Of a DNA stretch of 64,000 nt, positions 15,001 to 63,068 are shown in pieces. The stretch lies in the IMG/VR virus record IMGVR_UViG_3300035670_000089, positions 33,571 to 97,570 of that record. One strand, written 5' to 3'. How positions within the stretch are numbered: position 1 is the stretch's first letter; each line of letters starts with the position of its first letter. The DNA is from a virus. A program made the position numbers and the translations under genes. The notes beneath the pieces are model-generated. The model did no database searches. It was given only the letters and a program-made list of their open reading frames with translations, and was not told where the DNA came from.

Positions 15001-17347
15001 CTATACGATCTATTTCCCTCCGGAAAGTCTCCACACCCTCATCGGCGGGGTCTCCAGATTCCATTAAATTCTTTACAAACTGCAACGCAGTTTTATTATC
15101 CGAGGCATCGATAAACTCCTTAACTGCCCCGGCATCATTCATCTTACCGAGGATGGAGTATTCGAGCATAGCGTCAATTACGTTAGACCCGATTAAACCC
15201 TTGGCCGTAAATTTATCTGCAACAGCATTAAGAGAGTAGAACAAATCGCGGTGTTGCATCGGGAGTTGTCTTGCTCTAGCCCAACCAAAGAAACCCTTGT
15301 TAGTGGACGAGGACATAACTCTCTCCATACCGGCAGTCTCTAACTCCGCTTTAAAGATTGAGAGAGAGTGACTAAATCCAAAGTAGAAGAGTAAGGCGTT
15401 AGTAGTAGCACTAGCCGTAGAGTAGGAGGACGATATGAGAGTCTCGAAGAATCCCCTCTTCTCTTTACTCTCGTATTGAGATTTATGTAATCCTTGAGGG
15501 TCGTCCTCCAAAGCTTTACCTTTTTCCGCAGCGTAAAGCTGCTTCATCGTGTAATACCCTGTCAAATAATCTAAGGTACGCCCAAAGAGAGTTAGACCTG
15601 TACCCACCAAGCCGCGGTCTTTCTCGTAAGCCTCGGGGAATTTCTCGTTTATAAGTGCGCCCCATCCTCGTAGAGTACCCGGGCTAAGTTGTCTATCTAG
15701 AGAAGCATAAAGGGCATAGCGGAATTTATCCCCAGGCTCAGTGACATCATCTTTAGTTTTACCGGTAAGGCTATATATATAATCTTGGTATGGAGTGGGG
15801 CGTTCTCCTTTAAACATCGAGAAGAACCTATCGTCTATAGATGTAGGAAGATAAATCGTCCCGGTGGTCTCTCTTGATATTGTGTCCCCCATATCGGATT
15901 TATCGGTATACTTAGGCCTAAATAATGTGGAGAACAGTCCTCTATCATACGCAGTGGTTTTTGAGGATAGTTGTCGCCCAGAGAACAGTGGGAAGTTCCT
16001 CTCGTTAAGTTCCTTATTCTTAGTATTTAAATCAGGGTCAGGAGTATCCGTAGGCAATAAGGTCTTAGTTATACCTTGCGCTTGCCACCTCTCAATTTCT
16101 TTAATACCAGCTTTCGAGATATTAGGGTCGCGTATAACCACCCCAATCTCGGTCACAAAGTTATTACTACTTTTACTGAAGTTGTGGGAAGTGATATAGG
16201 ACCAGACATCGCTAAATATAGATTTAGCGTGAAGCATGACGTTAGCCTGCTCATCGGTTAACCTCACTTCTATCTTCGGACTTGAGTTCACCAAAGACAT
16301 TAGTAAGTCCGATTGTATCTCTGGACTAGTAGCGGCGGTTTTCCCCGCTGGATTATTAGACACAATTACTATCTTATTTATATCCGGGTCTTTACTCTTA
16401 GCAACCACCTCTTTAAATAACTCTTTATCGGTAGCCGCGAATAGAGTCATATATAAGTTACCTTTGGCAGACTGCACTAGCTCTTTATGTCTCTGCTGCG
16501 ATTCTCCACCTTTACCGCCAATAATTACATTAGGAAGATTCGGCGGAGTCTCCTTAGGGTCTTGAGCCGATTTGTTTATATACTGTATAGCCTGCTTTAT
16601 CTGCTTAACGACTGCATTATCTTCTATAACAGCGGAGAAGTTCAACTGTTTCGTCGTATTACTTTTTGTTTCCTGGGCTTCACCTAAGTTAGCAGTGGAT
16701 ATTAAGGCGACTTCATCAGAACGAGAGGTAGCCGCCGCTTTAGCGTGTCCGTGAGTATTGTCACCCTGAGTTCTACTCTCATAAGTTTTTCCCGCGTATA
16801 CACCCCTTATATTAGACCGTTCGGTTATCCTACCGCTAAGCATCCGACCTAAAGTAGGGGTATCCATAATTGCTAAAGACGCCGCAGTGGCAGCAGCGGC
16901 TCCCGCTAGTAGACCCGCTGCCCGAGCTACTCTATTTTTACCTAAGTTATACCCAACTACAGCACCGCCTGCAGCCGCTAAAACAGTAGGGACATAATTA
17001 TCATTAAGGGGAGTAACATCCGAGTAGACGTTGAGTTTACCTTTTAGGCCGTAGTCCTCTATATTAGCGCCCAAACTAACCGACATAAAGTTGCCGCTCT
17101 TTATATTTTCGGGAGAAGGGTCTTCAGCCAAGGAGTTTAATCTACGGTAAAGTCTATCCTCAAGACGTCGACTCTGCGTCGACATACTATAGTACGAACC
17201 GATTAAGCGGTCTTTCTTGTTATGCACTTTATCTAAGAAAGAAGAATAACCCTCTTCAGTCTTAGAACCAGAATAGAGAGTTACCTCCGACAATCCGGAG
17301 TAGGTAATACCTTCTTCAGTTCTGTTTACCTTGGTGCCCAAAACCAT
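1..17347 (-). CDS. Giant multidomain virion protein (tape-measure/ejection-like), >=5782 aa, 3' end beyond the window: tandem PLD, hydrophobic helices, HExxH peptidase, lysozyme, M23, M23-like, RlpA-like and L,D-transpeptidase-like domains
   Basis: ATG at 17347 follows AGGGG just after the stop of the upstream gene (MVLGTKVNRTEEG...). Manual translation of about 16100-17347, 4150-4750 and most of 1-2530 stays open in one frame. It is probably absent from the ORF track only because no stop is reached in the window. Motifs: HAK/ISTANL, HAKSIFSD/TSHNFS, HEQAH, AVGRYQFIPSTL/EWAS, HRGVD/HLHFE, ASYYG/RVNDNGP/FDLS, AVSG/PLPDGSY. Confidence 0.88.
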   Translation of the reverse strand, partial: MVLGTKVNRTEEGITYSGLSEVTLYSGSKTEEGYSSFLDKVHNKKDRLIGSYYSMSTQSRRLEDRLYRRLNSLAEDPSPENIKSGNFMSVSLGANIEDYGLKGKLNVYSDVTPLNDNYVPTVLAAAGGAVVGYNLGKNRVARAAGLLAGAAAATAASLAIMDTPTLGRMLSGRITERSNIRGVYAGKTYESRTQGDNTHGHAKAAATSRSDEVALISTANLGEAQETKSNTTKQLNFSAVIEDNAVVKQIKQAIQYINKSAQDPKETPPNLPNVIIGGKGGESQQRHKELVQSAKGNLYMTLFAATDKELFKEVVAKSKDPDINKIVIVSNNPAGKTAATSPEIQSDLLMSLVNSSPKIEVRLTDEQANVMLHAKSIFSDVWSYITSHNFSKSSNNFVTEIGVVIRDPNISKAGIKEIERWQAQGITKTLLPTDTPDPDLNTKNKELNERNFPLFSGRQLSSKTTAYDRGLFSTLFRPKYTDKSDMGDTISRETTGTIYLPTSIDDRFFSMFKGERPTPYQDYIYSLTGKTKDDVTEPGDKFRYALYASLDRQLSPGTLRGWGALINEKFPEAYEKDRGLVGTGLTLFGRTLDYLTGYYTMKQLYAAEKGKALEDDPQGLHKSQYESKEKRGFFETLISSSYSTASATTNALLFYFGFSHSLSIFKAELETAGMERVMSSSTNKGFFGWARARQLPMQHRDLFYSLNAVADKFTAKGLIGSNVIDAMLEYSILGKMNDAGAVKEFIDASDNKTALQFVKNLMESGDPADEGVETFRREIDRIGNYAVKKGELDVATTEIAEEVHRIKKQTFGVTDGVMDLESGLYRDPAPNQYGSLNVVNRLRLLDDSNFENVIEPILRSISIVGDVETQLSFENSVKGLREVLSQPIYIRYKSETFSSIEPMNFGKQRLEDIARHLDDISRYIAFNPIYYLPGVRKARGITGTWTPDLVEANQGPLPNQVLSLKGALGPGFQGLIELSSNITLTARRMYEHGLVKTLKESGEILHLGKQLRHQEPAIAAIMSNSDLLSQLADDTASSPALNRIQQVLTEYDDLFSRHQQLSAYRHKGLSNTIKSVHAAAIGRKALASVGAVLAVDRVLDKYLMQNRGQDLISQMLYGINAKDTVKDGSADFSQVQYTGVVPDWLKVPTVLGAGVASGKMFYSLRIDDRLSTFARSDAEFKKLFNDESNKAVVQQLESINTRFTKGRNVTRFSFGMATVGAIASLFVLQGGFNTAAALANVFKKDYGDDGGLKTDEDIVFSTTMSSSIRRTVDKYKKLAKERTGEDVEDQDILNTRYIPKSGLANIALLGLLADRALQADKGKERVGYTWAHQQPNPIFQITLVSKTDPQGNKYAFSAGFQFLPILGMGSIPSYPLSLRINSVTTRAEQVAEKRYQRLYPGGIEDTRDTKELARESRESYLQGNLFDSFTPVFDKDSYFTRSLVFVGAAGVAGNIWQGVQQSGAWAHLSSIPSVKKELEGARSALGYLQLGVEQYEKLARWSQVPQTVMPNLLMRSIGTSTRFYDVKDARFLGPSFRKMTPLLLAAAIGFGAVGKGSEYSSLGSYYEAAGLSNVGSTANPYEALRQANEYRIGAAVGLTTVISTALYSGRVFDSAKSFVDTPPSYGISPFSLRGTQRQMYATYQDEALNLLAKAAHGDSVLRDLDAEKWPELVNRYARGTFNEVEAGKILPGKGKELFQQVDDVLRYAEPKLVRSNAIRMRLAGMSIVRAGALVGLAGLVYNTMFSDSRAEGEGNRFVRGFFEGPLKVFSGTESSSDFKRMSAARRALGYSSPFAPANKENFIPNLLNLFTLGLFGDIRKMTGMYKDNPNPFANIFGAWGMSEGTETWRAYLQAQSPGADISQSKVYMNMESISADDAKVLSAILSTKGEYSDKAVAKIRGATPKKTPSRLYGKTTASEVQALGGSSRELAMAAEVREFYAQHAARQRGSELFIDYFLEMARSGRIENLKVGDVLVEGLKSVDWTKYDLDGIFQYVPGAESQQPGVLDLFLNTFNVGGRFLTTGSFEKPTMDFAGLMESRKQAQRGNIFSYFIEPLKMAYFPKLREYSSTNSKGEVEQKTVPFVGSTVIMTLTTALTFTAVTAATTFSLMTTVSAFAAFGEGGTIRGMEEKVAERIASIQNSNFTIVSSGDNFQVQGRQRQTKGARRLRLGSETLTVSTQNARKIQDQFVDLNSRLSSYVEDLPDRESEFVKQIDTLVESKKKPGVDIGKEVEDLTGRIKRELRDILLDASIDVNDGSTKRLLEFFIDSSSATGIDAAVDDLIEDKFGKLSSLITDEINSTHVTPQNKYNIIQNIAERILDIQDAILNSAIQDEGASHVPQRLPRKKISPREQREIARRLLNNRNASLFSMSTTDRVARVGYLGSLREAATGAFGLLGKAMEVATFYPVYSMVTQAASEKSPMERMRASEAAANMIIETGIGMTLLSFAAKSMFTPAGWVATGAILGGYFLDQKFNEGRITDSITKGVRHLDRHIFKPLANRVLAPIINTLVGVPVLNETLQVLGLPARALDPTITSLYRKFEGTPLAYITNAVLPETSEAWWNRDTKYSKGLITFQGPVPWETNERDISDYIAEKNRERYARAASTQAGLDDELVNPFLQGRINGFGEYTTYQRYFDTKGYAFRVLAPFGPKPYMSQLLTLAALRRNQLGDMLHGRPYRQRINETPFGSIGTAVVGSYVTNKIPQESVGSTSYTLAKVADNTAYAIRETPNVLRDTASTIYGNITAPFKGASIDTSGIMRMGGAIVSTGERIGDAFKGVLSGIGNNRVSRGALTGLITYGVLTAIFSNSLSDRERRKYRQIDPFIWGMSGAASFANSFMGPLTRQIKSGLDVVDTYFANQNIKKFEELSGLTAEELVNINNAQLNDMLKYKGIGRSALPFVFEYLGKGALVGGATFGLMQYGRSLVTSATGMSDEDYTKLSLGVSGATSVTYMGIKGGIRRGYERRMMNYAREAAKAREAGRTFKDLAPERVRIGRASSRMALGAGTGFLKGYFLTGFLYNFLHKDEDQTTEEYRDERRKWQFIGGGAYGATDAIRYGFKFSFRGIVQDARNILNPNYVPVRQNNIIFREVEDLFDPFGLRTVGLPILKGISKGIGGLVSSLANFTFRRGSAPNIPPTSPTTPLPPRPQQSLFHKIWGGVHEFLFGSQPFRNGLTTFLSESLPMAAKKAYDSSAFRPLRSLGRGTINALMSTGVDTALMSFSMWRLNSLGGYSDIQEYRAASRDVAGAAIGASVNLGSLILSGVTRGKINLSWAKQISTTMILQNSVGEFVGNWLGDRMYSERGTRRRSLIGKTISALPGIGDMLMPPSAYADEGTADESQVTTRDVVEFGVFGLAVAGIGYGVTTGAVSGWRYLNEVNKTRDLFMRSPFLKGDSLRFSPASAKTSRLPRLYASRVSPSRLKGTRYSSLYRGVASAGDDLVEEGVKSSVRSTQARVYREAARLTAERMARGGGRQAFSKAARNRMFQKELYRAASREATKEVAGRSLSGQIFRIVTSRAFDAAIAVVAAPFTLHSNSQAAENLRHYKTSPRQEIVDINKRNVTGIFTGLSVVPRIGTALNIIGSFASEVSGGFGQGQRYWQRLQRANITSQAEYVKYADSASKGGLTGALVGAGVGAVIGGLLGGFPGAIVGGIIGGYIGNYLGSVISQEAYLFNKEKNHDELYATIGGHALLAGGLYGAYKLGRSLWNRKLERDLKQTQEKAKTNIKEEMGATPQSPEETKTPVETAEPVEPAKPTPKPTPKPQPPETSAENTQKLNEEAAEERVETAKTILGEPPKPTPKPTPKPTPAPTPKPTPKPTPKPTPKPQTTSSKPSFAPAVLQYRSDQIDKYTSGQYSYEQLTLIEQDLTLRLSKDKRTGRTLSKNERLGIVAERAAVIAAKEQIIPPELKQIEDEAKAKKRQLQNETQQQREAVEAEAARKRAELESKPPTPLTPPTPPTPPTPALSEEEMIEAKYREKQKSSHDKFKDREEEIARKEAELAAKHKELEDLRSGKSPTPTTPTAESPGPVSKPTVESSKPTPPPLPPTKPTPTPPPLPPTKPTPQSKPDAETSKPPSESLRPIDHNLVYAGKAGMLQDLRAGADASRSARIFIESVDDDLLWEDGFDSLREREAKLRQSANETLNTDLVPNTGEVEAKVARELAQADYINERLNALQKSNDIQNLKGEAATQRVDLSNAGVRKQKVGLWDRLWNGPSFYFEERPDMVFRGDSFMQEEEIRFANEQIERMFPHEKAPTLEIVRDPKSTYKGYYDPRRHVVSVNLARGDTSLDILDTLVHEQAHAYNTRYTSKTDFFDSAKEYVSFLKETLLTNKLRSDFIEVSLESKQRRQYVYRGALSSSHHYAVGVLGVQTVEGTNYTRPNQDVVSQINKLAERAETGQLSIEDDRLFRKLTGGFIDELSAYNAAAEVYEEFPVNSVGKGLHTHEAPDKGFEAAYNRMMKAAGFDVQVEMGFKPPQRKKAPGGFVRVQKQSKAAGRRERWSNVRRGTAQGIDIQGLILDTIIDKTKGAADKAVSGVKTVASNLGRGVWEGSGKLETWGSKLDTRFGNVGVGGQAGFFGRFGQGLRAEFSMRGIVEGTFGVGKTDTGKFGLKGKGGAMALLGTGLQLADDILSGKSAGETATNFGMSILGGLAFGAAMAGLGAMAASSAAAIATLGTLGSVALMAYGIYSLTNQALDVGGKAYEKWWLKRKRTAEEQKDWEEQKQMLSMGFGVGTAMYVGSLAVLRSTEAEKRNSFTSRKVVEQSGLRVQTQRGRTLSSVGGGVSGVGSGVTSGALGDKTIYTPANDPALQLLSGVLSKETSLQKETKVKLPSKVNKLEKEEKSSKDKEKVNKAAQDAKKQKSTFAEEYKLYEDKLKGEKGPWRSILDFFGLAWKAVTGASRFIYEAKTKLFKGVADRIAGGMQAAFRAGNDFMGLIQGDVRGTFADILNMISAGEGDWGSFNRGKAGDSMNSSWESVFGKRVQETTLAEIMEAQSKGKVFAVGRYQFIPSTLAGAVKNTGIDPNTPFNEDTQMRLAVSLLQWKRPAIWKYITGQSDDIVAAQKALALEWASIEYGKSGRGAYDSVGGNRHSTSYEKSIEALIATRQRYAESGGNFVFDKGGMWSEASPDGVQVKGATQVKASDINSGYGMRVHPISGKRKMHRGVDVASVGGKGVDGMFISFTKDTVVTKVGYQEGGAGYWAELDAGNGMKFRVMHMRGQAFLKVGSTLKAGSAIGQVGSTGGSTGPHLHFETIINGAHTDSRPYVGFVLLGGKPNVEVKQPQTPPPAPKNTAKGGSQSQRMAEQTSVSTSRGAVGGLVSNGSAYKTPMKTIHGGGGDPYHIDFKIYGGVSDEQRVALMDAVARGYEAEGRRIEFSNRAVGGVVYRSTDSFKEKLRKIRAAQVAHRGHSSRFAMDFYVPIKGKARYTGKAKTSSTDGGANVNYIIPVIPGGYFTVGKQGRSGQQIIGYNAKGEAVYEFFHGAGMQPGTYRFQDAAPASQQSRPKEAFAPNIPVTPIPSPPGKSTPPQSQPKQQKSSGPAWIKTDKRASYYGRGDGFAGKGTATGEKMDPTAMTVAAKLVNGRPMFPYGTMIEIRNDDNGKSVVVRVNDNGPLTPRRMFDLSAGAFEKIAPIEQGEIRNMSYRVLSTPQSKKQKQQRSKPQQPKQQQRTNSRQTSQTQTRRYDQRLDLDTKLFPSLVTLVPTNRKTQHGSPIYSLQMWKNGKLVGAVDAVSGRPEHQRGNRDVAGSHRPLPDGSYTLARTPFRSNEKDVGGLFLPITPNFP
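5150..6090 (-). repeat. Pro/Thr-rich coding tandem repeats (PKPT, TPP) forming linkers in the giant protein
   Basis: 12-nt GGTTTAGGGGTA-type units at about 5865-5960 and 9-nt GGAGTAGGA units at about 5453-5500. More Pro-rich tracts lie at 5150-5300 and 6045-6090. All are in frame with the giant ORF. Confidence 0.85.
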
Positions 17348-49065: not shown

Positions 49066-50528
49066 GTTCTCTTAGGTTGTTTCTTCGATATCTGTTTAGA
49101 CTTATTCCCTGTGGAACGCCCCGGACTACCTGAACCTTTAGGGCCAACATCCCCTTCCCGAGGTTGTTTCTTCCGAGGTTCGATAAGAATCTCCTCGATG
49201 AATTTCATGTCGTCTTCGTCTCTTACCCGAGTACCCAATCTCAACATCTGCATAATCTTCGTGTAGTCTTCATCATTCCTCGGGTTCAGTACCGCAGACT
49301 CTACCAACCCTTTAATCATCTGCATGGTGGCTACTCTATCTTCCGAACGGTCGGAGTAGACGCGAGAGAAGGTAGGAGGAATACTAGCCGCGGCGCGATT
49401 AAAGTTCCACTGTTGTAAAGGAATGAATATCTTGCGGATTAAGTTCGATAAAAGCGCTTGCCGCTCTAACTCAATAGAATTCGTAAACAGCTCTATCTGT
49501 CGCTCTTGTGCTACTTCCTGCTCCCTCCCATCCATCACCGCCATGGATGTCAACAAGAAGGACGGGATAATATGCTTTATAGATTGGTGGTCCGCATATT
49601 CAATAGCTTTAACGAAAAGATCACCCACCGGGTCTTGAATAGCCTCCGATCCCACCTCAGGTTCCGTGCCCTGTTGCTGATACGGAAGAAAGATAACTTC
49701 GGGGATACCCTCAGTTTCATCAAACTGTTCCTTAATCAACTGCAGCGTCGTAATATAGTTCTCTTCTCCAGTAGACGGGTCAACCCGTACCTCTTGTGTA
49801 GGGAACGAGGGCATCTTAACCCAAAGAACTCGGTTCCCTAGTTTATAGAGTGAAGCGGACATCATATCGATTAGAGCTTCTTTAAGCCGCGTCCATTTAT
49901 ACGAAGGGGCGATTAATGACCTACCGTAGTAGTTCCCAAAATCACTCTCATTCGTTAAATGCACTAACTTCCATAAGTCTAACTGCTTCTCCTTTTGATA
50001 AAAACCACTGCTTAACTGCCATATCCCCGAACGATGATACCCGTCCGGCGTCTCCTTACCCTGCACTAATCTTCCTTTCTTGTCAGTGTAGATAATGATA
50101 GACTTAGGGTGATAAGTTATTAAATCTTGAAGAAAGAGTTTACCGTTAGAGAAGTGGAAGAGAATTTCGGATACTGAGTTACCCGCCCAGTATTTTGTTT
50201 CATTCATCACCTCGAGGCAGTTATAGAAGGAGCGACCGTTCAAATCCTCCAACTGTTTCAGATTACGGTTATGAAACTCTGCGATTTCTTTATCGGGGTG
50301 TTGAATCTCACCGATAGTGCCTAGAAGCCATTGAGTTCTAGCGCGTAGAGCCGCTTTTATTGTGAGGTCTTGGCGCCACAGTCTTTCGTACAAGCGCATT
50401 TGCGCCAACAGGGGTCTATGTATCGTGTTGTAATACGAAAAAGACCCCTGTTGGTTAACGTAGGAACCCTGTTGTTTTAACTTCCCTCTTACTTGCCTAC
50501 CGTCTTTATACTTGATGTCAGTATTCAT
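49062..50528 (-). CDS. Portal protein (DUF935/Mu gp29-like)
   Basis: LYERLWRQDLTIKAALRAR, GNSVSEI, GNYYGRSLI...W, LIRKIFIPLQQWNF. Confidence 0.88.
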   Translation of the reverse strand: MNTDIKYKDGRQVRGKLKQQGSYVNQQGSFSYYNTIHRPLLAQMRLYERLWRQDLTIKAALRARTQWLLGTIGEIQHPDKEIAEFHNRNLKQLEDLNGRSFYNCLEVMNETKYWAGNSVSEILFHFSNGKLFLQDLITYHPKSIIIYTDKKGRLVQGKETPDGYHRSGIWQLSSGFYQKEKQLDLWKLVHLTNESDFGNYYGRSLIAPSYKWTRLKEALIDMMSASLYKLGNRVLWVKMPSFPTQEVRVDPSTGEENYITTLQLIKEQFDETEGIPEVIFLPYQQQGTEPEVGSEAIQDPVGDLFVKAIEYADHQSIKHIIPSFLLTSMAVMDGREQEVAQERQIELFTNSIELERQALLSNLIRKIFIPLQQWNFNRAAASIPPTFSRVYSDRSEDRVATMQMIKGLVESAVLNPRNDEDYTKIMQMLRLGTRVRDEDDMKFIEEILIEPRKKQPREGDVGPKGSGSPGRSTGNKSKQISKKQPKRT

Positions 50529-51824: not shown

Positions 51825-54800
51825 TTGAAGGCTTTATATACACCCTCATCTCCTAGCTTACTGATGAATCCAGACGAAGAAGATCCAATTTATCCCCAAG
51901 ATGCAGATGAATCCGCTTATGACCCTAATGGTGAAGATCCGGATGAAGGTTTGTATGAAGATTCATACGAAGATGTTGCGGATACAGACGAACACCAACC
52001 AGAATATAGCCCTGACGATGACGACAACAATGACGGTGCCGAAGAAAGCGCTGACGATACCGATGAACGCACTCTAACTGAAAAAGAGTTCGACGAAAGT
52101 AGTATTGAAGAACAGTGGATAAAAGAGAGTATCGCCAAAGATACTATCGACAGTCCTGTCCAAAAGTTCTTTGAATCTTTCCTCGAAGCCACTGACGACC
52201 CGTATAAAACTCTAGCAGATACCACCCGCCGCGCGTTTGAAGGTATAACCTCCAAACGACTCTCTTCAGAAGATGTCAGCAACATCAATACGTTCGTTGA
52301 ACGTATCCACGGGGCGGGACGAGATTTAACTCAACCGGAAAGCGTCGACGGTAAACTACGCTTCGAGAGTTCGGTACGACTCAAGCACACCGGTATCCGG
52401 AACAAAATAGTAGAGAAGACTGGACTATACCGTCCACCCGTAGGCTTCGTCAGCAGAACTAACGAAAGAGATTGGGTCGCCTACCACGCTGCCAATCGCT
52501 CTCAAAACCTCGCGGAGGTTCGTTTCCAACTTCAAGAACGCACCTACGTCAATGAACTCTTAACCAGAGGAGAACTCCACGCTACAGGTAAAGCGGGCAC
52601 GACTAGAATCTTAACGCAGAAGTATAACGTAACCGAAGGTCAAAGTACTGCCGATGCCGCTGGAGCGGCCGGACTCTTCATAGGCAACGAGTTAACCCTC
52701 TCCGCCCTTAACGCCGCGGGGAAAGAAAGTGGGATAGAAGCAGACGGAGTCCGGATGGAAGGCAAACAATCCTTCCACCCTAAAGTCGGTTACTACTCAG
52801 ACAATAACGATAACGTCACCTCCGGTTTTATCAGTACTCAAAACATTACTAAGGAATTGACGAAGATGCGGTCTCAAGAGGAAACCGTATTCTTTCACGC
52901 CTACCGCGCGAATAAACCGGGAGGCGGTAAAGTCACCCAAATCCTCCAGGAAATACAAGCCGTCACTGAAGCTCTCTTTGAAGGAACAGAAGAGCAAAGA
53001 ACTGAGAACAAGACTGAAGATAGCGATACAATCCGCTCCAATATAGAAAGTAAGTTCGCCACAAAACTAAAAGGGCGCCAAAATAACGTCGTCAAACTTA
53101 ATAAAGAACTCCTCTTGGGCTTCAAGAGTATGCTCTCCGAGCAAACCTCTAAATCCAATACTAAAGTTATTGTCAGTTTACAGCTCTTAGACTCTAATCT
53201 CTTTCATGATTATTCCTTAACGAAAGACGAGACAGCGAGACTAAGTGAGTTAAGCGGCAGAGCGGACTTAAGTAAGGAGGAGATAGCAGAGAAGAAGGCT
53301 CTGGAGTTAAAGGGCGACTTTAAGACATATAGGGATGAAGTAGCAGGGCATTTAAAAGAATTGGCATCGCAAAAGAGACTGGCGATTGGGGTAACCGCGA
53401 CCAGTTTTGGGGAGAATCAAGGGTTATACCGTCTCCTCGATAAAAACCGTCGTGATGACCTTCGGATAGAACTAACAGGACTACTCAATATAAAACAAGA
53501 CCAACGAACTGAAGAGAACACAAGGCGTATACAGGAGATAAAGGGTGACTTAAACCTTAAGGGGACAGAGGAGCAGATAAAAGCGAAGGCGGAGAAACTT
53601 GAACTCAGCGCGGAATCCAAAGACTTATTGAAGACGTTTTTGGAGAATGATGTATTCCGAGTATTGGCGTCGCAATATATGCACTCCAAAAGCTACGCAG
53701 TCCTACAAATGGAGAGAGGTGTATACAGCGGTGTTGACGCTTTAGGGACAATGTCCTCAAACTTCTCGATGAACAGTTATGGAAGGAGCATCGAGGTAGG
53801 GATACAACTAGGCGCTGAGGATATGAAAGAGGCGGGATTCACTAAGGATGAACTCGACCAAATCATCTTGCACTACGGCTATGGGATAGATAAAGGAGGT
53901 AAAGAAAACCTTAAGGGTCTCTTAATGGAGAAAAAGGGGGATACAAGAAAGACCGAGGAGTTTATGCGGACGCTCCGCGCAATGGGGGGTAAAGAGACAA
54001 GAGTTAGAGATAAAGCGGGTACTGCTCCCTTTAGATTTTCCGCAAGGTACGCCGACAATAAACTAGTAGGGGTAGATATCGTCCTTAAGGACCAATTCTC
54101 TATGAGTTTGACTATAGGGAAGGACGCGGTATATATAAATAAAGGTAACCGTATAATAACCGGGGCTACTTGGTTAAACCAAAGTTCCAAAGATATAACG
54201 ATAGCGAGTGATATCGTCGACGGTAAAAAACGGATAGTAAGATCTGGGGAGTCCGCACAGATAAGCGCGACCCAGGTCGCCGCGGCATTAATCGCCACAA
54301 TGGGCCGAACCAGCGCCTACGAACGTAACCAACGTTCGATGTTCCTTACCCTCCGTAAACTCGTCAAAAAGAGCGAGATAGAAAAAAGAAAACTATTCCT
54401 ACTCGCGGGATTAAAACCAGAAGAAATTCCCGAACTGTTACGGAGACTAGACAAGGTTGTTAATACCGAAGACCTAGACTTCTTTAATAAACAACAAAAC
54501 GTGGACATGGTGGCTAAAGCCATCGGGCACGATAGAGAACTGTATGAGTATTACTCCACTCAGACCCGCGTCGCTAAATCTGAAGTGATTAATCACTTAC
54601 TAGACGTGTACATGCAGACGCATGAATTACCGTATAGTCATTCGCAGTTGAAGCATAAACAACCCGTGATGGGAATTACGGACAGAGTTCTACAAAATCT
54701 ATTCGCGCGCCCGATAAACGAGAAAGTAAATAAGGAAAAAGCAAAACAAGAACGAATAAAAAGGAATCCCTACGCAGAAGGAGATATTCACGACTCTCTA

Positions 54801-57800
54801 GATACACTAGAACTATCGTCGTATATACTCAGTGACGTTAACTTCTCCCACGCCACCAAACTAGTTGATAGTGAGGGTAGACCTTACGTTCGAGGGGTAG
54901 CCGACATTTCTCGCTTCAAGAGTATGGACTTACTTGAGGTGTTTGGGGGTATATACAAAGCGAATACCGGTAGTCCTACTCCAATGAGTTTGGAACTTAT
55001 GCGTGCATTGCCGGGACTGGATTTAATAACCGCTAAAGAGTACAAACAACGATTGGCGGACTTAGGTGTTGACAGTAAACTATCGAAGCGTTTATTAGAC
55101 TCCGCGTTTGCGGCGCATAAAGAAAGAGCGGAAGACGAAGTAGATGACGATGCTGTAATGCTCTACTTCCCGTATAACAAAACAGACCAAATATCCCAAC
55201 GTCTAAAAAACCTTAAATCAGTGCGCCCTTTTATTGTTGCGTCTAGAGCCTTCACCAGTAAAGTAAGGAGCTTCGGGTTCGACAATATATTAACCTCGGG
55301 CAAACTTAAACCTGAAGAGATTATGGGTACAACAGTGGCTCAATCTCTAACTCCAGAACAATACGAGACAATGTTGGAGATAAAGAAAGAGATCGATGCG
55401 GATACCACAATAGTAAATAAAGATAGAGAATTAGAGAGAAGGTTAAAAGCAATAGACCTTAACCCCGACTCTGATGTGCGAGGCTTTACTAATACTCCCA
55501 GACGAGTTTTGGCGAGTATGGGGATAAGTCAAATGTCGGACTTCTCCTTTGTGAACGCGAATATCGCTAATAAATCCTCGTATATGTTTACGCATAGGGT
55601 GCAAACTGCTTTAAGTTACGAGGAGTTGGGTATATCTCCGGCGGAATTTAGCGGGAAGGTAGCTAAAACCTTAAGAGCCGGTACAATGTTCGCGGCGCAG
55701 AAGACTGAACTACAAACAGATAACGCTCTCTACAAACACATTCGGGATGTTTTAAGGTACAACACAAGCATGACAAACGAAGAGCTTCGGAATAATCTGA
55801 AGACTCTATCGAAGAATAAAGCTTTTGAGTTTCTAAAGAATGTAGACGCAAAGATTACTAAGAATGGGTTACAAATATCGATTAAACAGGGGGTATACAG
55901 CACTGTCTCAGATACAGGACAGTGGGAACTTCGTAAGATAGGTGACATCGCCGCCGGAAGTTCATTCTTCCATATCGAAGGTCTAACCAAGTATAAATCT
56001 TCCGGAAAAGACTCTAAGAGAGAAGTCTATATACCGATTAAATCCCCAGCAGTATCTAGAAGGGCGAATAGAGGATTGAGTATATTGACCGAAGACGCCC
56101 GGGTTGTCGTAACTGACCTGCAACCCAACATGGTAACTCTTACCTACGAAGCCCTCAGCGTACAAGAACTAACAAGTGGTCTCCGCTCGTCCACCGCTAA
56201 AGGTCCGATGAGTATGCGGTCAAAAGACCTGTTCGACACTTTAAAAGAATGGAAAGAGCGCGAGGGTTCCGATAAGTATGGACAATACGATACCCAAATA
56301 GACAAGGGAGAAGTATTCTCTCTTATCGCCGCCGGTCAAATAAAGGGCTTCCTCTTCGAGGCGGGCTTCGGCTTCCTCCGTATGGGTAAAGAATCTAAGA
56401 TCTATCAAGAAGTCGCTAAACCCTCCTCTGGTCTAAAAATAGCCGAAGCCATCGCTATCACAATGCTCGACAATAAATCCAAGGATACTCGTATATCAAA
56501 TTTATTGTTAGACGCATATGACACAGGTGTTCTATCTAAAGAAGGCAAGAAACAGTTTGTAAGTTTCTTAAAAGGTATATCGGACAAACCGGATACCAAA
56601 ACAACAAAATTTAAAGAAAAAGACATAAAAACGTTATACACAAGTAAAACTCAATTAGACGCATCATTGAGTATCTTTGGTGGATTAATGTCACTTACGC
56701 AGTCTAGTAGATTAGACTCAGATAAAAGCGTAGAGCAGTCTTTAATAGACACCGTCGCCGCTGCCTTAACCGGGGACGAAGAAGCACAAAAACATCTGCA
56801 GGACCAAGCTTTAAAACTCTTTAATACTACTCTCGATAAAGGAGAGTACAGCACAAAGATTGGTAATGAATACTCCTTTAATGAGTCTAAAGGTAAATCG
56901 GCGGCACTACTCGCCTTCATGTTGAGTGTCGGGCAAGAGTTAATCCAAGATATAGATATAGAAGAAAGAACAGGTAACAGAGATAAAGGGTTATTCGAGT
57001 TAGGGTTTGGGAAAGAATCCACTGACGAATATATCGAGAACAAAAAGTATGAGAGAGCCGCGCGGGCACAAGCGATAAGTATGAACAAAACTTTGCCGCG
57101 GGCAAATGAGATATACACTGAGGAGAACCTACGGAAGATAAGAGAGAAGCGTCAAGAGTTAGATAGAGCAACCGACGAAGCGGAGCGTAAAAAACTAGAG
57201 ATTGAGTTAAAAGCCTTAAAAGCCGGAGAAGATAGTGCTAAGAAGGCGAAGTTAGATAACTTACTGTATGAGATGTATACCGCCGGGCAGACTAATCGGT
57301 TTATCACGCTACCCGTAAATATCGACATCAACAAAATTACGCCCGCCGTAGGGATGCAGGACTCTACCTCCCTAGAAGGCCACTACGCTCAATTCTTAAC
57401 GCAGAAACAATTAAACCTGTACACCTATACCGCTAGAGAGAAAGAAAAGGCGTCTACTCTCCAAGAGTCTCTAGTTGTTATCGGAGGCCTTCTAGAGGAA
57501 TACCGTGGCGGTCTACTAACCGCTCAGAGAGTTAGTAAGTTTTACAGTTTCCGTCGCTTCAATTCAGTATTATTAGCCGATACAAAAACACGAAATAAAT
57601 TACTTAAAGAGTATATCCCCGGGAAGGATAAGAAAGCGGAGCGGCGTAGACTAAACCAATACGCGGAAAGTCTATCTTTCTTAGCGCAGTTTAGTGAGTC
57701 CTATAGTCACTTCGCCTCGGAAACCATGCCCCTCATCTTTAAACGTCAGGAAGGGTTGGACAATGTCTACGATGTGGAATCCGCGTACGAGACGTTCTTT

Positions 57801-60800
57801 GAGTTTAGCCGTAAGGGTGAATCTCAAGAACTAAATACCCTATTGGAGAATATGCGCTCCATTGGGGAAATAGCTAGTGGAGACATAGGAAGACTACCCG
57901 GCGATAAAATGGAACAACGAGTCGAGACTATGTCGAGGGTCTACCTTGAGGACATGAGAGCAGGTTTAGAAGGCGAAAAAGGTTCCCTCTTAGGAAAACA
58001 AGTTAACTCCATCGTAGAGAGTATACTAGAAAACATAACAAAAAACCAAAAGAAAACCGGACAATCTATCCCGGATATCGCGGCACAATACGCCCAGTTT
58101 GAACAGGGTGCCCTCGAGATCGGTCAACGCCGTGAATTGTTCTTAAACCAACTAGTGCAAAACAAGGCTGCATTTAATAATCTAAGTAATGAAGAGAAGA
58201 GAGATTACATCCAACAACGGATTATCCGAAGTGCCCAACTTTTGAACGAGGAGACTGCCGCCACTGCTTCACAACAAGATATTCAAGAACGAAATGTACT
58301 CCTCAGTATTATCTCTAAAGAACTTTTGGATAAGTTCAAGAGTGCTATAACTATCGACCCAGGGACGGAGTATATCGAAGGACGGCATAAACTTAAGGAG
58401 TACACGCAAAACCGTATTGCTGAACTAGAAGCAAAATCTAATCCTTCCCGTAAGGACCGACAAGAGATTGAAAGACTAAAAACCCTAGAGAAGTCTATTA
58501 TCAATACGTTTACCTTAGAGCTACCTAAGTTAAGGTTTAGCGGGCACGATTATGACGAGGGTATAGAAGCCGGCGTAATAAAATTGAATTTCACTGGGGA
58601 GGAGACTCAAAAAGCAATGGTATTGGGGTTAGACCTTATAGACCGGATGAGTATGGTCTTCCAAGATTTCTCCCATCCTGCAATGGAGGCACAACAGACA
58701 TTAATCACAAGTATCGCCGCCGCTAAGGAATTAAAGGTCTTTGACGCCTTAGCTAAAGGCTTGACTAAGGACGAGGAAGTCTTCTTTACTTCAGAGCAAT
58801 TAAAGGCATACCAAGATTTAATGAAAGCATCCCAAGTTGCAGAGGCGACTACTTTAGAATTAGCGCGGAACCAAGAAGCAATCCGCCGCTCTATGGGAGA
58901 CCGTCTAACGATGAAAGGTTCCTCTTTCATCGCCACCTCTAGTTTCTTACTCGATAGTCTTGAAGTGGGTTTAGGTAAACGTGTCGATAGTATCCTAGGC
59001 GTAACCGCCGACTCAGGACTAAAAACCCTCCTTATACGGATGGGCGACGCTCTTAAAACTTCTTCCGGGAAAGAAGAACACCCCCTACTCCTAGAAACCT
59101 TTACCGATATCTTTAAAGGTATGGCTTCTATGTATATACAAGGGGATATAGACACTTCTAAGGTAGATTCTAGTAGGTTATCCAACCTACTACAGTTGTC
59201 CAACCTCAAGAAAGGTTCCGATTTAGCGGCGGACGTCATTGCCCTCTTGGACCTTCTTAAAAGAGAACACGATATGACTAAGTCCAATACAGCAAACCAA
59301 CGGAAAGGTAAAGACATACTACAGAATATAACTACCGCAGAGATTAAGGCGCACCAACAGTCTGAGAGCTTTAAGGCAGATAAGAAGAATAAACTTCTGG
59401 AGATGGAGAACTTAGCGTTTAAAGCTTTAGTCTTGGTAGCGAGACAAGGTGCGCCCAGTGGTGTAGGGGATACTTATCCGTTAGGGCACGAATATACAAG
59501 CGAACAGGAAGTAAACGCTAGAGCAAAGAAATACGGGACATTACTCCAATTAGACGAGCGCTCAAATAATACAATGATGCTAATCTCCGCGTTGGGTTTC
59601 CAATTTACTCAATTAGGGGACTACGACGGGGACTCTTTCCAAGCTGCAATGACCCGCCTTGCGGATACAACTTCCGCTTTGGGGCAACTTGCTATGAATA
59701 TAAACAAGGAGAGAAAACGCATCCCTGACCCTAAAACGAAATATCAAAATATAGGAGCTACCGCGGAAGAGCAGGATAAACTCGATGCCTACCACTTCTA
59801 TAAGATGCAGTCCGCCCAAAAAGCCATGAAGGACTACTCTCAAGACTTTGTGGATAAAGTAACCGCTATTCAAGAACTTCGCAAGAAAGTATTGGAACAG
59901 AGTGAGGGAGCAGTCAGAGACTATATCTCTAAATTTATGGGTATCGATAGAGACCTTATGGAAGGAACACCAGGCTCCACCGGCTCTATTCTTGATGAAG
60001 AACTCAATAGCCTCGTTAAACAGTACCGAGACACTTTAGATAATCTCTACTCCAATAGAGATATCATGCAGTCCTTTAGTGAAAGTCTGTCCGCAATGAC
60101 GACGAAGATATCGGATAAAGGAGGTACTGCTGCCATTACGGATACAAAACTAAAAGCGTTAGCGGATCAATATATAGAATACCTAGGGGCGGACGGCAAA
60201 AAATTCTTCGATGTCGACTTAGACCAGCAGAGACAACAACTAATAGCGTATAGTTCGATGTTGAGTAATTTCGAGGCAAGTCTACGCACTACGGCCAAGA
60301 TGTGGGATAAAGCCGCGGGCTCGAGTATCGACACAGAATCTTTTGCGGAGATCCAAGCTATTGTAGGCGACACCGGTACTGGACTTCTCGGTAAAACCTA
60401 CAACACTATTATTCCTCTCCTTTCGATGACGGCGGGACAACAAGCAATACATCGAGCGGCGGAAAAACAGGATAGTACAAGCGCTGAGATTCTCAAAACA
60501 GCTATCGAACAGAGAGAAGCCTCTTTGGATGTAGATGACGAGGACTATGAACTCAAACGAGATTTCTTAAGGGACTTAAAGACGAAGTATACCGGGCAGA
60601 CTAAACCAGAGCCAAATATGGCACTGTTCCAAGAACTCCAAGATAGAGTAGACGCCACCTTTGGGGTTCTGACGAATATACAACAATTCCTCCGAGACGC
60701 GGCATTAAAACCGAAGGAGAAAACTACAGTAAGTTTAATCGCGCAGGATTGGAGATTAAGCGGTGATTTAGCGAAGGAATTTAGTGATGTAGCGGATAGA

Positions 60801-63068
60801 CGAGGACTGCATAATATTCTTTCCGGCGTCGGTGACGATGAAAACCGCGCCAGAATCTTGGATGCCTTCATCGGTACCCAAGCGGGTGCAGTTATGAAGA
60901 GCGATCTAAACTTAAACTTAACGTCAGAGGAAGTCGCAGCTTTCCACGACAATAAATGGAAAGATATCGACACAAACGAGATTAGGGCCTTTGGAGTACT
61001 CGAGATAATGAACGAGTACCTAAGTGGAAGAAAGAGTGCGGAGGCCATGATGGAGGATGGTAAATACCGCGGCCTCTTTAGTCAACAAAAAGAAGCTTTG
61101 GCCGAAACAGGTAAACTTACCTCCGACTCTGAGATAGTCAGCGCGACCATTACAAAACTCCTCAGTAAGTTCCGGTCGCAGTTTGTTTTCGACAATGTAC
61201 TTGAAGGCGGAGAACCTAAGAATAAAGCGGCATTAGAATCTTTCTTTGGACGAATGAAGGAGAAGTATACCGACGAAGGTATAGAAGAACAAATAAAGGC
61301 GTACGAAGCAGAGTACGATGACCGACTAACCAAGGAGGGTATAGTCGGGAGTACAGCGGAAGAGATAGAAAGTATCGAAATGAGAAAACAGGAGAATGTA
61401 GATAAACTGAGAGAGAAGAAGAAAAAGATACAAGAGATTGTACAGAGAAAGGATATAAATGCCGAAACTGCTGTAAGAGAGTTAGTCGGACTAAATATAC
61501 AATCCCAGACGGAAGTTCTCACTCCCGTATTAGAAAAACTAAGGGAAATCAATATCCTCATAGGTAAGGCTAAAGAGGGGACGGCCCCCTCAGGCACTGG
61601 GGCCTTCGAGAATATACAAGAACAGATGTTGGCGCTGACCAATACGTTATCGCGGGGGAAAATAACTGGAGGAGCTTTAGCGGGAATAAGTGCTAAACTC
61701 GCTAGTTTAGTTAGTGGAGACGTAAACCAAAATGAGTTTATGGCGCTGTTGGCTCTTGGAGGAGATATGGGTTTACCGGGTGCGCTAGAGCTTATACAAC
61801 AGCACCAGGAACAACCCGATAAGATTACCCAGAAAGAGAAACTACGCCAGGAAGAAGTAAAAGCAAAAGAACTGCAAAAGGTTATGACCGAGACCGTAGA
61901 CCAAGACGGGACGAAGATAACCTTTGCGGAGTATAACGTCTTAAATAACACTGAGACGGCACATGTGGAAGAACTGCAAAAAGGAGTCCGGAGTGCATCT
62001 GCGCTACAGAATGAATTGATGGGGCAACAAGAGGAGTTATCGGATTTAGACCGTGCTACGATAGACCGTGCCGAGAAGGAGAAGTCAAAACTTAAAGATA
62101 AGATAAACCGTATTCAAGATAAGAGTCTCTCTCTAGAAGAGAGACAAAATATGATACAAGATGAGTTGTGGGAAGACCCCGCGGCAGATGTATCCGAATG
62201 GATAAATAAAGAGTTATACACCAAAGCGAGAAAGGTTAAGTCCGAAGAACGCAAAAAGTATGTAGACGCCGCAAACCGTGAAGTAGGTAAGGAATATCGT
62301 AAAGGACATATGATGAGTGTCCTTGTCCTACCTCTGATATTCGGCGCCGCTCAAGGCGAAGTAAACTTTGAGAACGCTATTAATACTGGCTGGGATGTAT
62401 TACAAGGAGTAGTAACCTCAGTAAATTATAAAGAGTCTAGTATAAGAAAACAGTTGTTCTCTGCGGATGGAAGTACATTAGCGGAGGACCCGACGTTAGC
62501 GGAGAAGAGGGCGCAAAAATTGGCGTATCAATTCCAACTCGCCCGCGTCCGTCAATTCCAGAGAGAGAGTAAAAATCCTTTAGAGGGGAGTTTACAAGCA
62601 TTAGCATTCGAGAGTGTATACATGGCGGCAGGTGCCGGGACTAGTGAAATTGCCTCTCGAGTATTTAAAAAGAGCGGGTCAGTCGCGCAAACCATAACGG
62701 AAGGTGTCGGAAACCTATTTGGTATGGCAGTCGCGGGGGCCTTAACAAAAAGACCTATACCCGGAACAGAAGCTACTCAAGATTATGCTTGGGCTGCAAC
62801 CGTTCGACAACTCCGCAATATTAATGAATATATGATTCAAGTTAGCGCCCGCGCTCTCCAAGAGATTGTACAGGGCGATGGGGAAACACACGCCTACCAC
62901 GATGAAAACGGAGAGGATATAACTGCCCTCCTTAATGAAAGCGATTTCCAAATGCCGGAGGATAATACAAGCTTATCAGCGATAGAGAGACAATTGATGT
63001 TAGGTGAGAGTAATATGGGAGCAGAAGAACCCATATACATAAACAATAATGCCGAAGTGACGGTTTAA
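51825..63068 (+). CDS. Giant single-chain two-barrel RNA polymerase with N-terminal tandem PLD/HKD domains (candidate virion RNAP); likely start ATG 51864
   Basis: Catalytic GDYDGD (D2599/2601/2603; 59619-59633) preceded by VLVARQGAP and RRSMGDRLTMKGSSFI (beta'-type barrel). QMSDFSFVN, GLRSSTAKG and GQIKG (beta-type barrel). PLD motifs FHPK...ISTQN and MHSK...SSNFS...IEVG. Confidence 0.8.
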   Translation: MKALYTPSSPSLLMNPDEEDPIYPQDADESAYDPNGEDPDEGLYEDSYEDVADTDEHQPEYSPDDDDNNDGAEESADDTDERTLTEKEFDESSIEEQWIKESIAKDTIDSPVQKFFESFLEATDDPYKTLADTTRRAFEGITSKRLSSEDVSNINTFVERIHGAGRDLTQPESVDGKLRFESSVRLKHTGIRNKIVEKTGLYRPPVGFVSRTNERDWVAYHAANRSQNLAEVRFQLQERTYVNELLTRGELHATGKAGTTRILTQKYNVTEGQSTADAAGAAGLFIGNELTLSALNAAGKESGIEADGVRMEGKQSFHPKVGYYSDNNDNVTSGFISTQNITKELTKMRSQEETVFFHAYRANKPGGGKVTQILQEIQAVTEALFEGTEEQRTENKTEDSDTIRSNIESKFATKLKGRQNNVVKLNKELLLGFKSMLSEQTSKSNTKVIVSLQLLDSNLFHDYSLTKDETARLSELSGRADLSKEEIAEKKALELKGDFKTYRDEVAGHLKELASQKRLAIGVTATSFGENQGLYRLLDKNRRDDLRIELTGLLNIKQDQRTEENTRRIQEIKGDLNLKGTEEQIKAKAEKLELSAESKDLLKTFLENDVFRVLASQYMHSKSYAVLQMERGVYSGVDALGTMSSNFSMNSYGRSIEVGIQLGAEDMKEAGFTKDELDQIILHYGYGIDKGGKENLKGLLMEKKGDTRKTEEFMRTLRAMGGKETRVRDKAGTAPFRFSARYADNKLVGVDIVLKDQFSMSLTIGKDAVYINKGNRIITGATWLNQSSKDITIASDIVDGKKRIVRSGESAQISATQVAAALIATMGRTSAYERNQRSMFLTLRKLVKKSEIEKRKLFLLAGLKPEEIPELLRRLDKVVNTEDLDFFNKQQNVDMVAKAIGHDRELYEYYSTQTRVAKSEVINHLLDVYMQTHELPYSHSQLKHKQPVMGITDRVLQNLFARPINEKVNKEKAKQERIKRNPYAEGDIHDSLDTLELSSYILSDVNFSHATKLVDSEGRPYVRGVADISRFKSMDLLEVFGGIYKANTGSPTPMSLELMRALPGLDLITAKEYKQRLADLGVDSKLSKRLLDSAFAAHKERAEDEVDDDAVMLYFPYNKTDQISQRLKNLKSVRPFIVASRAFTSKVRSFGFDNILTSGKLKPEEIMGTTVAQSLTPEQYETMLEIKKEIDADTTIVNKDRELERRLKAIDLNPDSDVRGFTNTPRRVLASMGISQMSDFSFVNANIANKSSYMFTHRVQTALSYEELGISPAEFSGKVAKTLRAGTMFAAQKTELQTDNALYKHIRDVLRYNTSMTNEELRNNLKTLSKNKAFEFLKNVDAKITKNGLQISIKQGVYSTVSDTGQWELRKIGDIAAGSSFFHIEGLTKYKSSGKDSKREVYIPIKSPAVSRRANRGLSILTEDARVVVTDLQPNMVTLTYEALSVQELTSGLRSSTAKGPMSMRSKDLFDTLKEWKEREGSDKYGQYDTQIDKGEVFSLIAAGQIKGFLFEAGFGFLRMGKESKIYQEVAKPSSGLKIAEAIAITMLDNKSKDTRISNLLLDAYDTGVLSKEGKKQFVSFLKGISDKPDTKTTKFKEKDIKTLYTSKTQLDASLSIFGGLMSLTQSSRLDSDKSVEQSLIDTVAAALTGDEEAQKHLQDQALKLFNTTLDKGEYSTKIGNEYSFNESKGKSAALLAFMLSVGQELIQDIDIEERTGNRDKGLFELGFGKESTDEYIENKKYERAARAQAISMNKTLPRANEIYTEENLRKIREKRQELDRATDEAERKKLEIELKALKAGEDSAKKAKLDNLLYEMYTAGQTNRFITLPVNIDINKITPAVGMQDSTSLEGHYAQFLTQKQLNLYTYTAREKEKASTLQESLVVIGGLLEEYRGGLLTAQRVSKFYSFRRFNSVLLADTKTRNKLLKEYIPGKDKKAERRRLNQYAESLSFLAQFSESYSHFASETMPLIFKRQEGLDNVYDVESAYETFFEFSRKGESQELNTLLENMRSIGEIASGDIGRLPGDKMEQRVETMSRVYLEDMRAGLEGEKGSLLGKQVNSIVESILENITKNQKKTGQSIPDIAAQYAQFEQGALEIGQRRELFLNQLVQNKAAFNNLSNEEKRDYIQQRIIRSAQLLNEETAATASQQDIQERNVLLSIISKELLDKFKSAITIDPGTEYIEGRHKLKEYTQNRIAELEAKSNPSRKDRQEIERLKTLEKSIINTFTLELPKLRFSGHDYDEGIEAGVIKLNFTGEETQKAMVLGLDLIDRMSMVFQDFSHPAMEAQQTLITSIAAAKELKVFDALAKGLTKDEEVFFTSEQLKAYQDLMKASQVAEATTLELARNQEAIRRSMGDRLTMKGSSFIATSSFLLDSLEVGLGKRVDSILGVTADSGLKTLLIRMGDALKTSSGKEEHPLLLETFTDIFKGMASMYIQGDIDTSKVDSSRLSNLLQLSNLKKGSDLAADVIALLDLLKREHDMTKSNTANQRKGKDILQNITTAEIKAHQQSESFKADKKNKLLEMENLAFKALVLVARQGAPSGVGDTYPLGHEYTSEQEVNARAKKYGTLLQLDERSNNTMMLISALGFQFTQLGDYDGDSFQAAMTRLADTTSALGQLAMNINKERKRIPDPKTKYQNIGATAEEQDKLDAYHFYKMQSAQKAMKDYSQDFVDKVTAIQELRKKVLEQSEGAVRDYISKFMGIDRDLMEGTPGSTGSILDEELNSLVKQYRDTLDNLYSNRDIMQSFSESLSAMTTKISDKGGTAAITDTKLKALADQYIEYLGADGKKFFDVDLDQQRQQLIAYSSMLSNFEASLRTTAKMWDKAAGSSIDTESFAEIQAIVGDTGTGLLGKTYNTIIPLLSMTAGQQAIHRAAEKQDSTSAEILKTAIEQREASLDVDDEDYELKRDFLRDLKTKYTGQTKPEPNMALFQELQDRVDATFGVLTNIQQFLRDAALKPKEKTTVSLIAQDWRLSGDLAKEFSDVADRRGLHNILSGVGDDENRARILDAFIGTQAGAVMKSDLNLNLTSEEVAAFHDNKWKDIDTNEIRAFGVLEIMNEYLSGRKSAEAMMEDGKYRGLFSQQKEALAETGKLTSDSEIVSATITKLLSKFRSQFVFDNVLEGGEPKNKAALESFFGRMKEKYTDEGIEEQIKAYEAEYDDRLTKEGIVGSTAEEIESIEMRKQENVDKLREKKKKIQEIVQRKDINAETAVRELVGLNIQSQTEVLTPVLEKLREINILIGKAKEGTAPSGTGAFENIQEQMLALTNTLSRGKITGGALAGISAKLASLVSGDVNQNEFMALLALGGDMGLPGALELIQQHQEQPDKITQKEKLRQEEVKAKELQKVMTETVDQDGTKITFAEYNVLNNTETAHVEELQKGVRSASALQNELMGQQEELSDLDRATIDRAEKEKSKLKDKINRIQDKSLSLEERQNMIQDELWEDPAADVSEWINKELYTKARKVKSEERKKYVDAANREVGKEYRKGHMMSVLVLPLIFGAAQGEVNFENAINTGWDVLQGVVTSVNYKESSIRKQLFSADGSTLAEDPTLAEKRAQKLAYQFQLARVRQFQRESKNPLEGSLQALAFESVYMAAGAGTSEIASRVFKKSGSVAQTITEGVGNLFGMAVAGALTKRPIPGTEATQDYAWAATVRQLRNINEYMIQVSARALQEIVQGDGETHAYHDENGEDITALLNESDFQMPEDNTSLSAIERQLMLGESNMGAEEPIYINNNAEVTV
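51835..51862 (-). promoter_or_regulatory. Candidate phage promoter AGTAAGCT-N14-TATATA
   Basis: In the divergent gap upstream of the chaperone gene; matches 18002-18029. Confidence 0.35.

Follow-up and report, generated by a model that had tools for sequence, protein, structure and literature searches.

The window, a 64,000-nucleotide stretch of viral DNA covering positions 33,571 to 97,570 of the IMG/VR record IMGVR_UViG_3300035670_000089, carries a giant open reading frame (ORF) at 51825-63068 on the plus strand. The encoded protein begins with a strongly acidic leader, which is followed by a phospholipase D (PLD) superfamily module with two HKD half-sites, referred to here as the PLD head, and much further downstream by a pair of short motifs of the kind found in two-barrel RNA polymerases. 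The full record is 97,570 bases long, with a CheckV completeness of 66%. The giant protein is read in a single open frame from a TTG start codon, whereas the copy stored in the database begins at an ATG 13 codons later. Residue numbers count from the TTG and are offset by +13 relative to the stored copy.

A predicted two-lobed PLD fold heading a giant protein

The initial annotation had described a tandem PLD/HKD module at 52740-53820, fused to the N-terminus of an RNA polymerase, and this interval lies entirely within the giant frame. The translation contains QSFHPKVGYYSDNNDNVTSGFISTQNITKEL, in which H318 is encoded at 52776, and QYMHSKSYAVLQMERGVYSGVDALGTMSSNFSMNSYGRSIEVG, in which H620 is encoded at 53682, both as the initial annotation had placed them, confirming that H318/K320 and H620/K622 are parts of complete HKD half-sites. 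The PLD assignment stands, and the module is larger than had been proposed: the fold spans approximately residues 205-695 (~52437-53909), and a small appendage continues on to residue ~771 (54137).

We modeled residues 190-800 with AlphaFold2 from a 21-row alignment. The model had a mean predicted local distance difference test score (pLDDT) of 82.6 and a predicted template modeling score (pTM) of 0.82, and the blocks containing H318/K320 and H620/K622/N646 had pLDDT values of 81-96. It consists of two seven-stranded alpha/beta lobes, at residues ~205-364 and ~419-695, with a helical insertion in the second. When the model was compared with the PDB using Foldseek, every top match was a member of the PLD superfamily with a probability of 1.00 (Tdp1, PPK1, PLD 7e0m, PLD3 and PssA). 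VIA-align gave a Z score of 24.6 with E. coli PssA (8yr5; 332 residues aligned, root-mean-square deviation 3.4), and scores of 24.4 with vaccinia F13, 23.8 with PLD4, 23.4 with PLD 7e0m, 23.2 with PLD3, 22.1 with PLD1 and 21.8 with PPK1; the range for PLD1/2 was 20-22. These alignments cover both lobes, over ~290-345 residues. The PLD fold that the initial annotation had anticipated is predicted with high confidence.

Residues 190-760 were used for an exhaustive phmmer scan of 1.84 billion representatives, which returned 15 proteins at E ≤1e-3, 11 of them giants of 3,806-5,310 amino acids. Eight further giants came from a word-indexed search in which the query was residues 2480-3000. Both half-sites are kept in all 21 distinct full-length members (including gp080 of the Microcystis phage Ma-LMM01, described below), where they lie within the first ~650 residues. 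In the 21-row alignment, H318, K320, Q339, N340, T342, L345 and E352 are invariant, and H620, K622 and N646 are conserved in at least 90% of the rows. The family consensus is [FL]H[AP]K[VL]GY...[FI][IF][SG][ST]QN[IP]T..L.....[ST].E for half-site 1 and H[SED]K[ST]..[AIV]...[GST][ST][AS]N.[ST]......N[ILV]E for half-site 2, and the textbook form HSKSFAVLD...GIGSANLS is seen in several relatives.

The HxK pairs might in principle have arisen by chance, with no PLD domain present. The giant protein contains 41 His and 311 Lys, and its HxK count of 3 against ~3.4 expected is not significant by itself, as would be the case for a chance occurrence. HxK alone is thus uninformative, and the case for a PLD domain rests on the extended motifs, their conservation and the fold. 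The window copy also lacks a direct match to a PLD sequence model: it was unmatched by Pfam PLDc_2 (PF13091) at E up to 1, and a phmmer search with it against the PDB gave no match. Two homologues, however, exceed the PLDc_2 cut-off of 27 bits (P0020 with 32.8 bits and P0013 with 27.4 bits), the extended motifs are conserved across 21 proteins, and the confident model aligns with PLD enzymes at Z ~24 over ~300-345 residues. A chance origin is therefore exceedingly improbable, and residues ~205-700 almost certainly form a real, conserved PLD-superfamily phosphodiesterase fold with both lobes in a single chain.

In such a fold, each lobe would give one HxK...(S/T)xN...E half-site to a single shared active site. 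By the mechanism of the family, the reaction would proceed via a covalent phospho-histidine intermediate, with one histidine acting as the nucleophile and the other as the acid, together with two lysines and two asparagines. Because the catalytic residues of both half-sites are kept in the relatives, the PLD head is most likely an active enzyme.

Ahead of the fold, the first 110 residues of the giant protein include 40 Asp and Glu but only 5 Lys and Arg, and the acidic stretch is ~105 residues long. N-terminal acidity is common to most homologues, with Ma-LMM01 gp080 as an exception (12 acidic versus 10 basic residues). The acidic leader may act as a signal for packaging or may mimic DNA.

Table 1. 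Positions of the features discussed, in window coordinates.
Feature	Position	Strand	Description
Giant ORF	51825..63068	+	3,747 amino acids (TTG) or 3,734 amino acids (ATG at 51864); divergent from portal/head/tail genes
Strongly acidic N-terminal leader	51825..52139	+	Composition
PLD N-lobe	52437..52916	+	~Residues 205-364 (model residues 16-175), seven beta strands
HKD half-site 1	52776..52883	+	H318-P-K320 ... S-T-Q339-N340-I-T ... E352-E353
PLD C-lobe	53079..53909	+	~Residues 419-695; long helical insertion at ~467-607 (~140 residues)
HKD half-site 2	53682..53795	+	H620-S-K622 ... S-S-N646-F-S ... I-E657
Conserved small beta appendage after PLD fold	54030..54137	+	~Residues 736-771, four-stranded, FRFSxRY...VGxDI
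Candidate polymerase-type motif pair	59442..59633	+	R2540-Q-G-A-P, 59 residues, L-G-D2599-Y-D2601-G-D2603; family-wide
Conserved blocks	60318-60386 and 60681-60716	+	Residues ~2832-2854 and 2953-2964
Mu-type portal	49062-50528	-	Strand opposite to giant gene
Capsid protein	43806-45134	-	Strand opposite to giant gene
Tail sheath	36419-39403	-	Strand opposite to giant gene
Large terminase with intein and HNH nuclease	18041-20989	-	Intein_splicing E 2e-12; HNH_3 E 2e-9
PLD module of second giant, N-terminal	16088..16771	-	H201/K203 and H373/K375/D380

PLD-headed giants in relatives of Ma-LMM01

PLD-superfamily enzymes are well known, but a giant protein headed by one is an architecture undescribed in the literature that we searched, and its only prior trace is an automatically assigned UniProt name. 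This name belongs to the best match of the model among predicted viral structures (BFVD), piece 1 of A0A7J4 from Microcystis phage LMM01 (E 4.3e-16). A0A7J4 is gp080 (YP_851094.1), a protein of 3,562 amino acids that is called 'PLD phosphodiesterase domain-containing protein' in UniProt and 'hypothetical protein' in GenBank. As with the giant gene of the window, the gp080 gene is divergent from the structural (head and tail) genes. The protein has an N-terminal two-HKD PLD region, with HPKFFVSD...GTMN at 287 and HVK at 566 (PLDc_2 E 3e-4), and further on RSPPP...LGDFDGDTF at 2477-2541 (NLGDFDGDTF at 2537). It is colinear with the giant protein in the FPYNKTDQISQRLKN block and in the GKTYNT...QQxLRDAxKPK block. 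Despite these likenesses gp080 is strongly diverged: blastp finds significant similarity in just two blocks, at E ~1e-6. Across the family, two blocks surpass even the DxDGD loop in conservation, namely GS...Q.I.G.TGTGLLGKTYNT..PL and QQFLRDAALKPK, and these are the only stretches that can still be aligned with gp080 by BLAST.

In the literature searched, no paper pairs Ma-LMM01 with 'phospholipase' or discusses gp080. In the Ma-LMM01 transcriptome, the counts for gp080 are zero in both of the expression columns that are listed first, and gp080 is placed in the 'middle' subclass B5, as are the neighboring structural-module genes. This timing fits a protein made for packaging.

The phage from which the window derives is contractile-tailed and has a tail sheath gene. 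Its capsid protein is nearest (~29% identity) to those of Microcoleus phage My-WqHQDG and of the Microcystis phages Ma-LMM01, MaMV-DC, MaMV-DH01 and relatives. The source phage is an uncultured one, related to the Microcystis cyanophage Ma-LMM01. A crAss-like identity, which the 97.5-kb contig and the giant ORFs had suggested earlier, was rejected on the basis of the tail sheath, the Mu-type portal and a capsid nearest to Ma-LMM01-type phages. The giant gene runs divergently from the adjoining structural block of portal, capsid, sheath and terminase genes.

Collection scans identified four further loci (L001-L004). In L001-L003 the giant gene and the genes upstream of it are divergently oriented, and in L002 and L003 these upstream genes include a portal-sized ORF, as in the window. 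A tblastn search of 50,697 phage records with the PLD region and with the DxDGD region gave no matches. The PLD head is the constant N-terminal part of a family of 3,200-5,400-residue proteins, whose genes lie beside those for the portal and head in contractile-tailed cyanophages of the Ma-LMM01 kind.

The fourth locus is a metagenome contig (OGVW01001002.1) on which L004:2-1498(+) encodes a PLD head that is 60% identical to that of P0012 and has a stop codon just past the second HKD half-site. The opposite-strand genes downstream of this ORF are unrelated, and its neighbors match nothing in the window. Either this is a PLD that stands alone, or the gene has been truncated or the contig assembled as a chimera.

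Substrate and role of the PLD head

A second giant frame of the same phage, 2..17347 on the minus strand, also encodes an N-terminal PLD module. It runs off the start of the window, with more than 5,782 amino acids inside it, and forms a 7,001-residue open frame in the record. Its N-terminus contains HGHAKAAA...ISTANL and MLHAKSIFSD...ITSHNFSKSS and matches PLDc_2 with 46 bits (E 6e-12) and DrmC with 38 bits. Toward the C-terminus there are an M23 peptidase and an RlpA-type lytic transglycosylase of the double-psi beta-barrel (DPBB) type, and the protein also has glycine-zipper segments. It is probably an ejected, envelope-penetrating protein. Phage G002 (94% complete) has both giants: a 3,921-residue frame orthologous to ORF 51825-63068, and a 4,239-residue protein (L012:3615-16334, minus strand) that keeps both HxK pairs and is similar to the second giant in its N-terminal part (E 1e-61). 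The second PLD-headed giant, in the window phage and in G002, is new in this analysis. A PF13091 search of the Ma-LMM01 genome gave one match only, and no counterpart of the second giant was seen there. This pairing of PLD-headed giants is the strongest argument for a role of the PLD head related to entry or the cell envelope.

Which substrate the PLD head acts on is not assigned by the fold, given the diversity of substrates among its structural neighbors. The solved two-HKD enzymes with the same bilobed fold (PssA, 8yr5; vaccinia F13, 9qqv; the human and mouse PLD3/PLD4 exonucleases, 8v08 and 8v07; PLD1/2; and the C-terminal domains of PPK1; Z 21-25) share 9-14% sequence identity with the PLD head, and their substrates are lipids, single-stranded DNA or RNA, and polyphosphate. 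At the level of sequence, nucleases of the NgoFVII, DrmC, NucT and BfiI types are the only families that match members of the giant family. P0020 matched RE_NgoFVII, the PLD domain of the NgoFVII restriction endonuclease, with 32.2 bits against a cut-off of 23.8 (E 8e-8), and was alone in exceeding this cut-off. The other matches were weak: DISARM DrmC at E 4e-5 and 6e-4 (23 bits against a cut-off of 133), NucT at E 0.046 in NCBIfam (13 bits against 297) and E 0.53 in the PDB, and BfiI at E 0.52 in the PDB, with DpdK among the sub-threshold families. None of the cardiolipin-synthase, PssA and PPK sequence models scored at E up to 1. The PLD domains of NgoFVII and BfiI, Nuc/NucT and DrmC have the same HxK...GSxNxS...NxE half-site pattern as the PLD head. 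Those enzymes have one HKD per chain and dimerize, whereas the giant protein has two diverged half-sites per chain, a helical insertion of ~140 residues, and carries the module as the head of a much larger polypeptide.

These matches give a nucleic-acid substrate a little less than an even chance, and we treat them as a lean and not as a result because they are short and fall on a shared motif. With such a substrate, the PLD head would be a nuclease, a nickase or an end-processing enzyme acting on host or phage DNA or RNA at the start of infection. The giant protein itself is probably packed in the particle and carried with the DNA into the host infected next.

Several observations weigh against this. 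The nuclease-type matches cover 25-75 residues and are centered on the common GSANxS...NxE motif, which is also present in lipid-acting PLDc_2 members. Fold similarity leaves nucleases and lipid enzymes unseparated, with PssA, F13, PLD3/4 and PLD1/2 all within ~2 Z units. The window copy itself had no sequence-model match in Pfam, PHROG, NCBIfam or the PDB, even at E up to 1-10. Finally, the second giant couples its PLD head with cell-wall hydrolases, which fits an envelope role at least equally well.

Some of the same evidence bears on a phospholipid-directed PLD head, a phospholipase D or transphosphatidylase that would remodel the host cytoplasmic or thylakoid membrane locally while the ejected giants and the DNA cross. 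PssA, F13, PLD 7e0m and PLD1/2 are among the top structural neighbors. The combination of a PLD head with an M23 peptidase, a lytic transglycosylase and glycine-zipper segments in the other giant resembles an envelope-penetration toolkit, and the pairing of PLD-headed giants recurs in G002. An analogy is offered by the type VI secretion system, which resembles a phage tail and fires lipase effectors of the PLD family. On the other hand, the cardiolipin synthase, PssA and eukaryote-type PLDc families match no family member, except for a 15-bit PLDc motif match in gp080; the matches that were found are nuclease-type, and no membrane anchor is predicted beside the PLD head. We regard a lipid substrate as rather unlikely, yet as the leading alternative. 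Both roles put forward in the initial annotation, the nicking or processing of nucleic acid and the remodeling of membrane, stay in contention.

Other uses of phospho-histidine chemistry include Tdp1-like holding or processing of genome ends, PPK1-like phosphotransfer to polyphosphate or nucleotides and the destruction of a host nucleotide signal; alternatively, the PLD head could be a handle for packaging or ejection. Tdp1 was the best Foldseek match by E-value (4e-8), and PPK1 aligned at Z 21.8. Tdp1 is, however, not among the 50 best entries ranked by Z, and it lacks the GSxN-type motifs present in the PLD head, while PPK1 requires ATP-binding domains, none of which are seen in the giant protein. 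The presence of an N-terminal PLD on two otherwise unrelated giants would suit a handle, since it suggests a role in delivery rather than a link to the downstream domains. Against this, the two PLD modules of the window phage show no more than a remote likeness (blastp E 0.31; hhalign E 0.006 and probability 6%, in the correct register), which leaves a shared handle without sequence support, and a purely structural role is hard to reconcile with catalytic residues that are fully conserved. Together these uses seem quite improbable. The blastp and hhalign signal is also too weak for us to claim a recent duplication of the two heads. Overall, we consider the best explanation to be an active PLD head that is delivered with the DNA and acts on nucleic acid, to which we would give an even chance.

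A candidate RNA polymerase and implications for phage entry

In the family of the giant protein, an invariant R-Q-G-A-P lies 59 residues ahead of L-G-D-Y-D-G-D-S-F-Q, and gp080 mirrors this pair with R-S-P-P-P 60 residues ahead of L-G-D-F-D-G-D-T-F. All 21 full-length members contain exactly one LGD[YFN]DGD downstream of the PLD head. The aspartate spacing equals that of the catalytic triad D1007/D1009/D1011 of QDE-1. The beta-prime-like pair of two-barrel RNA polymerases, a catalytic DxDxD loop and the R-x-P element that precedes it, is thus present at the level of motifs only.

Two known giant proteins delivered with the virion contain a diverged two-barrel RNA polymerase in one chain and so provide precedents, namely gp96 of Thermus phage P23-45, where the virion polymerase is fused to the tape measure, and gp66 of the crAss-like phage phi14:2. 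They have a DxDxD-type acidic catalytic loop motif in common with the giant protein. They differ from it in that no PLD domain has been reported for them, and the polymerase of the giant protein is a candidate identified by its motifs.

Searches for a polymerase fold or profile were negative. An AlphaFold2 model of residues 2240-3140 was built from a 12-sequence alignment and was poor (pLDDT 52.8, pTM 0.33), all helical and without beta strands, and at E up to 0.001 Foldseek gave no match for this poor model. A candidate second barrel lies at residues ~1230-1510. Run against all PDB sequences, the family profile picked out no polymerase, its sole match being a marginal one to BfiI in the PLD region. 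With hhalign, the family alignment reached probabilities of up to 0.23% against E. coli rpoC, rpoB and SPbeta YonO. A look-up in the ESM Atlas gave nothing but clusters that were unnamed or of the tape-measure type, with low recognition, and in the indexed collection the shorter relatives of the DxDGD region amounted to one 1,218-residue fragment, with no annotated relatives. We did not count these null results against a polymerase because a 12-sequence alignment and single-sequence templates are insensitive.

Of the fusion originally proposed, the PLD part therefore holds, whereas the polymerase part is unconfirmed, with a motif pair in its favor and empty fold and profile searches. Similarly, the PLD-DPBB fusion expected in the homologues is borne out as the co-occurrence of the PLD head and LGDxDGD in 21/21 members, while the DPBB fold is unconfirmed. 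We slightly favor the view that the C-terminal two-thirds of the giant protein, with its RxxxP...LGDxDGD arrangement, represents a very diverged two-barrel RNA polymerase. A 515-residue protein of the tail/baseplate block (26636-28183, minus strand) was matched by Pfam RNA_pol_RpbG at E 8e-4, with 19.9 bits against a cut-off of 27, and this match is probably due to chance.

More tentatively, an injected two-barrel RNA polymerase with a PLD head for nicking or end processing might ready the incoming genome, or disable host DNA, for early transcription driven by the phage. With its sister PLD head and its cell-wall hydrolases, the second giant, likewise ejected, would then point to PLD chemistry as a general part of entry in this lineage.

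The MaMV-DH01 genome was reported to have no RNA polymerase, and Ma-LMM01-like phages were said to depend wholly on host transcription. If the LGDxDGD region is a polymerase, this claim of full reliance on the host needs revision. If the PLD head enters the host along with the DNA, phages would inject an enzyme of a new kind, either a nuclease or a lipase, and the presence of such a head on two separate giants of one phage would suggest an entry strategy used throughout the lineage. The phages that carry these giants are bloom-controlling cyanophages, and since Ma-LMM01 is cultured, the question is directly testable.

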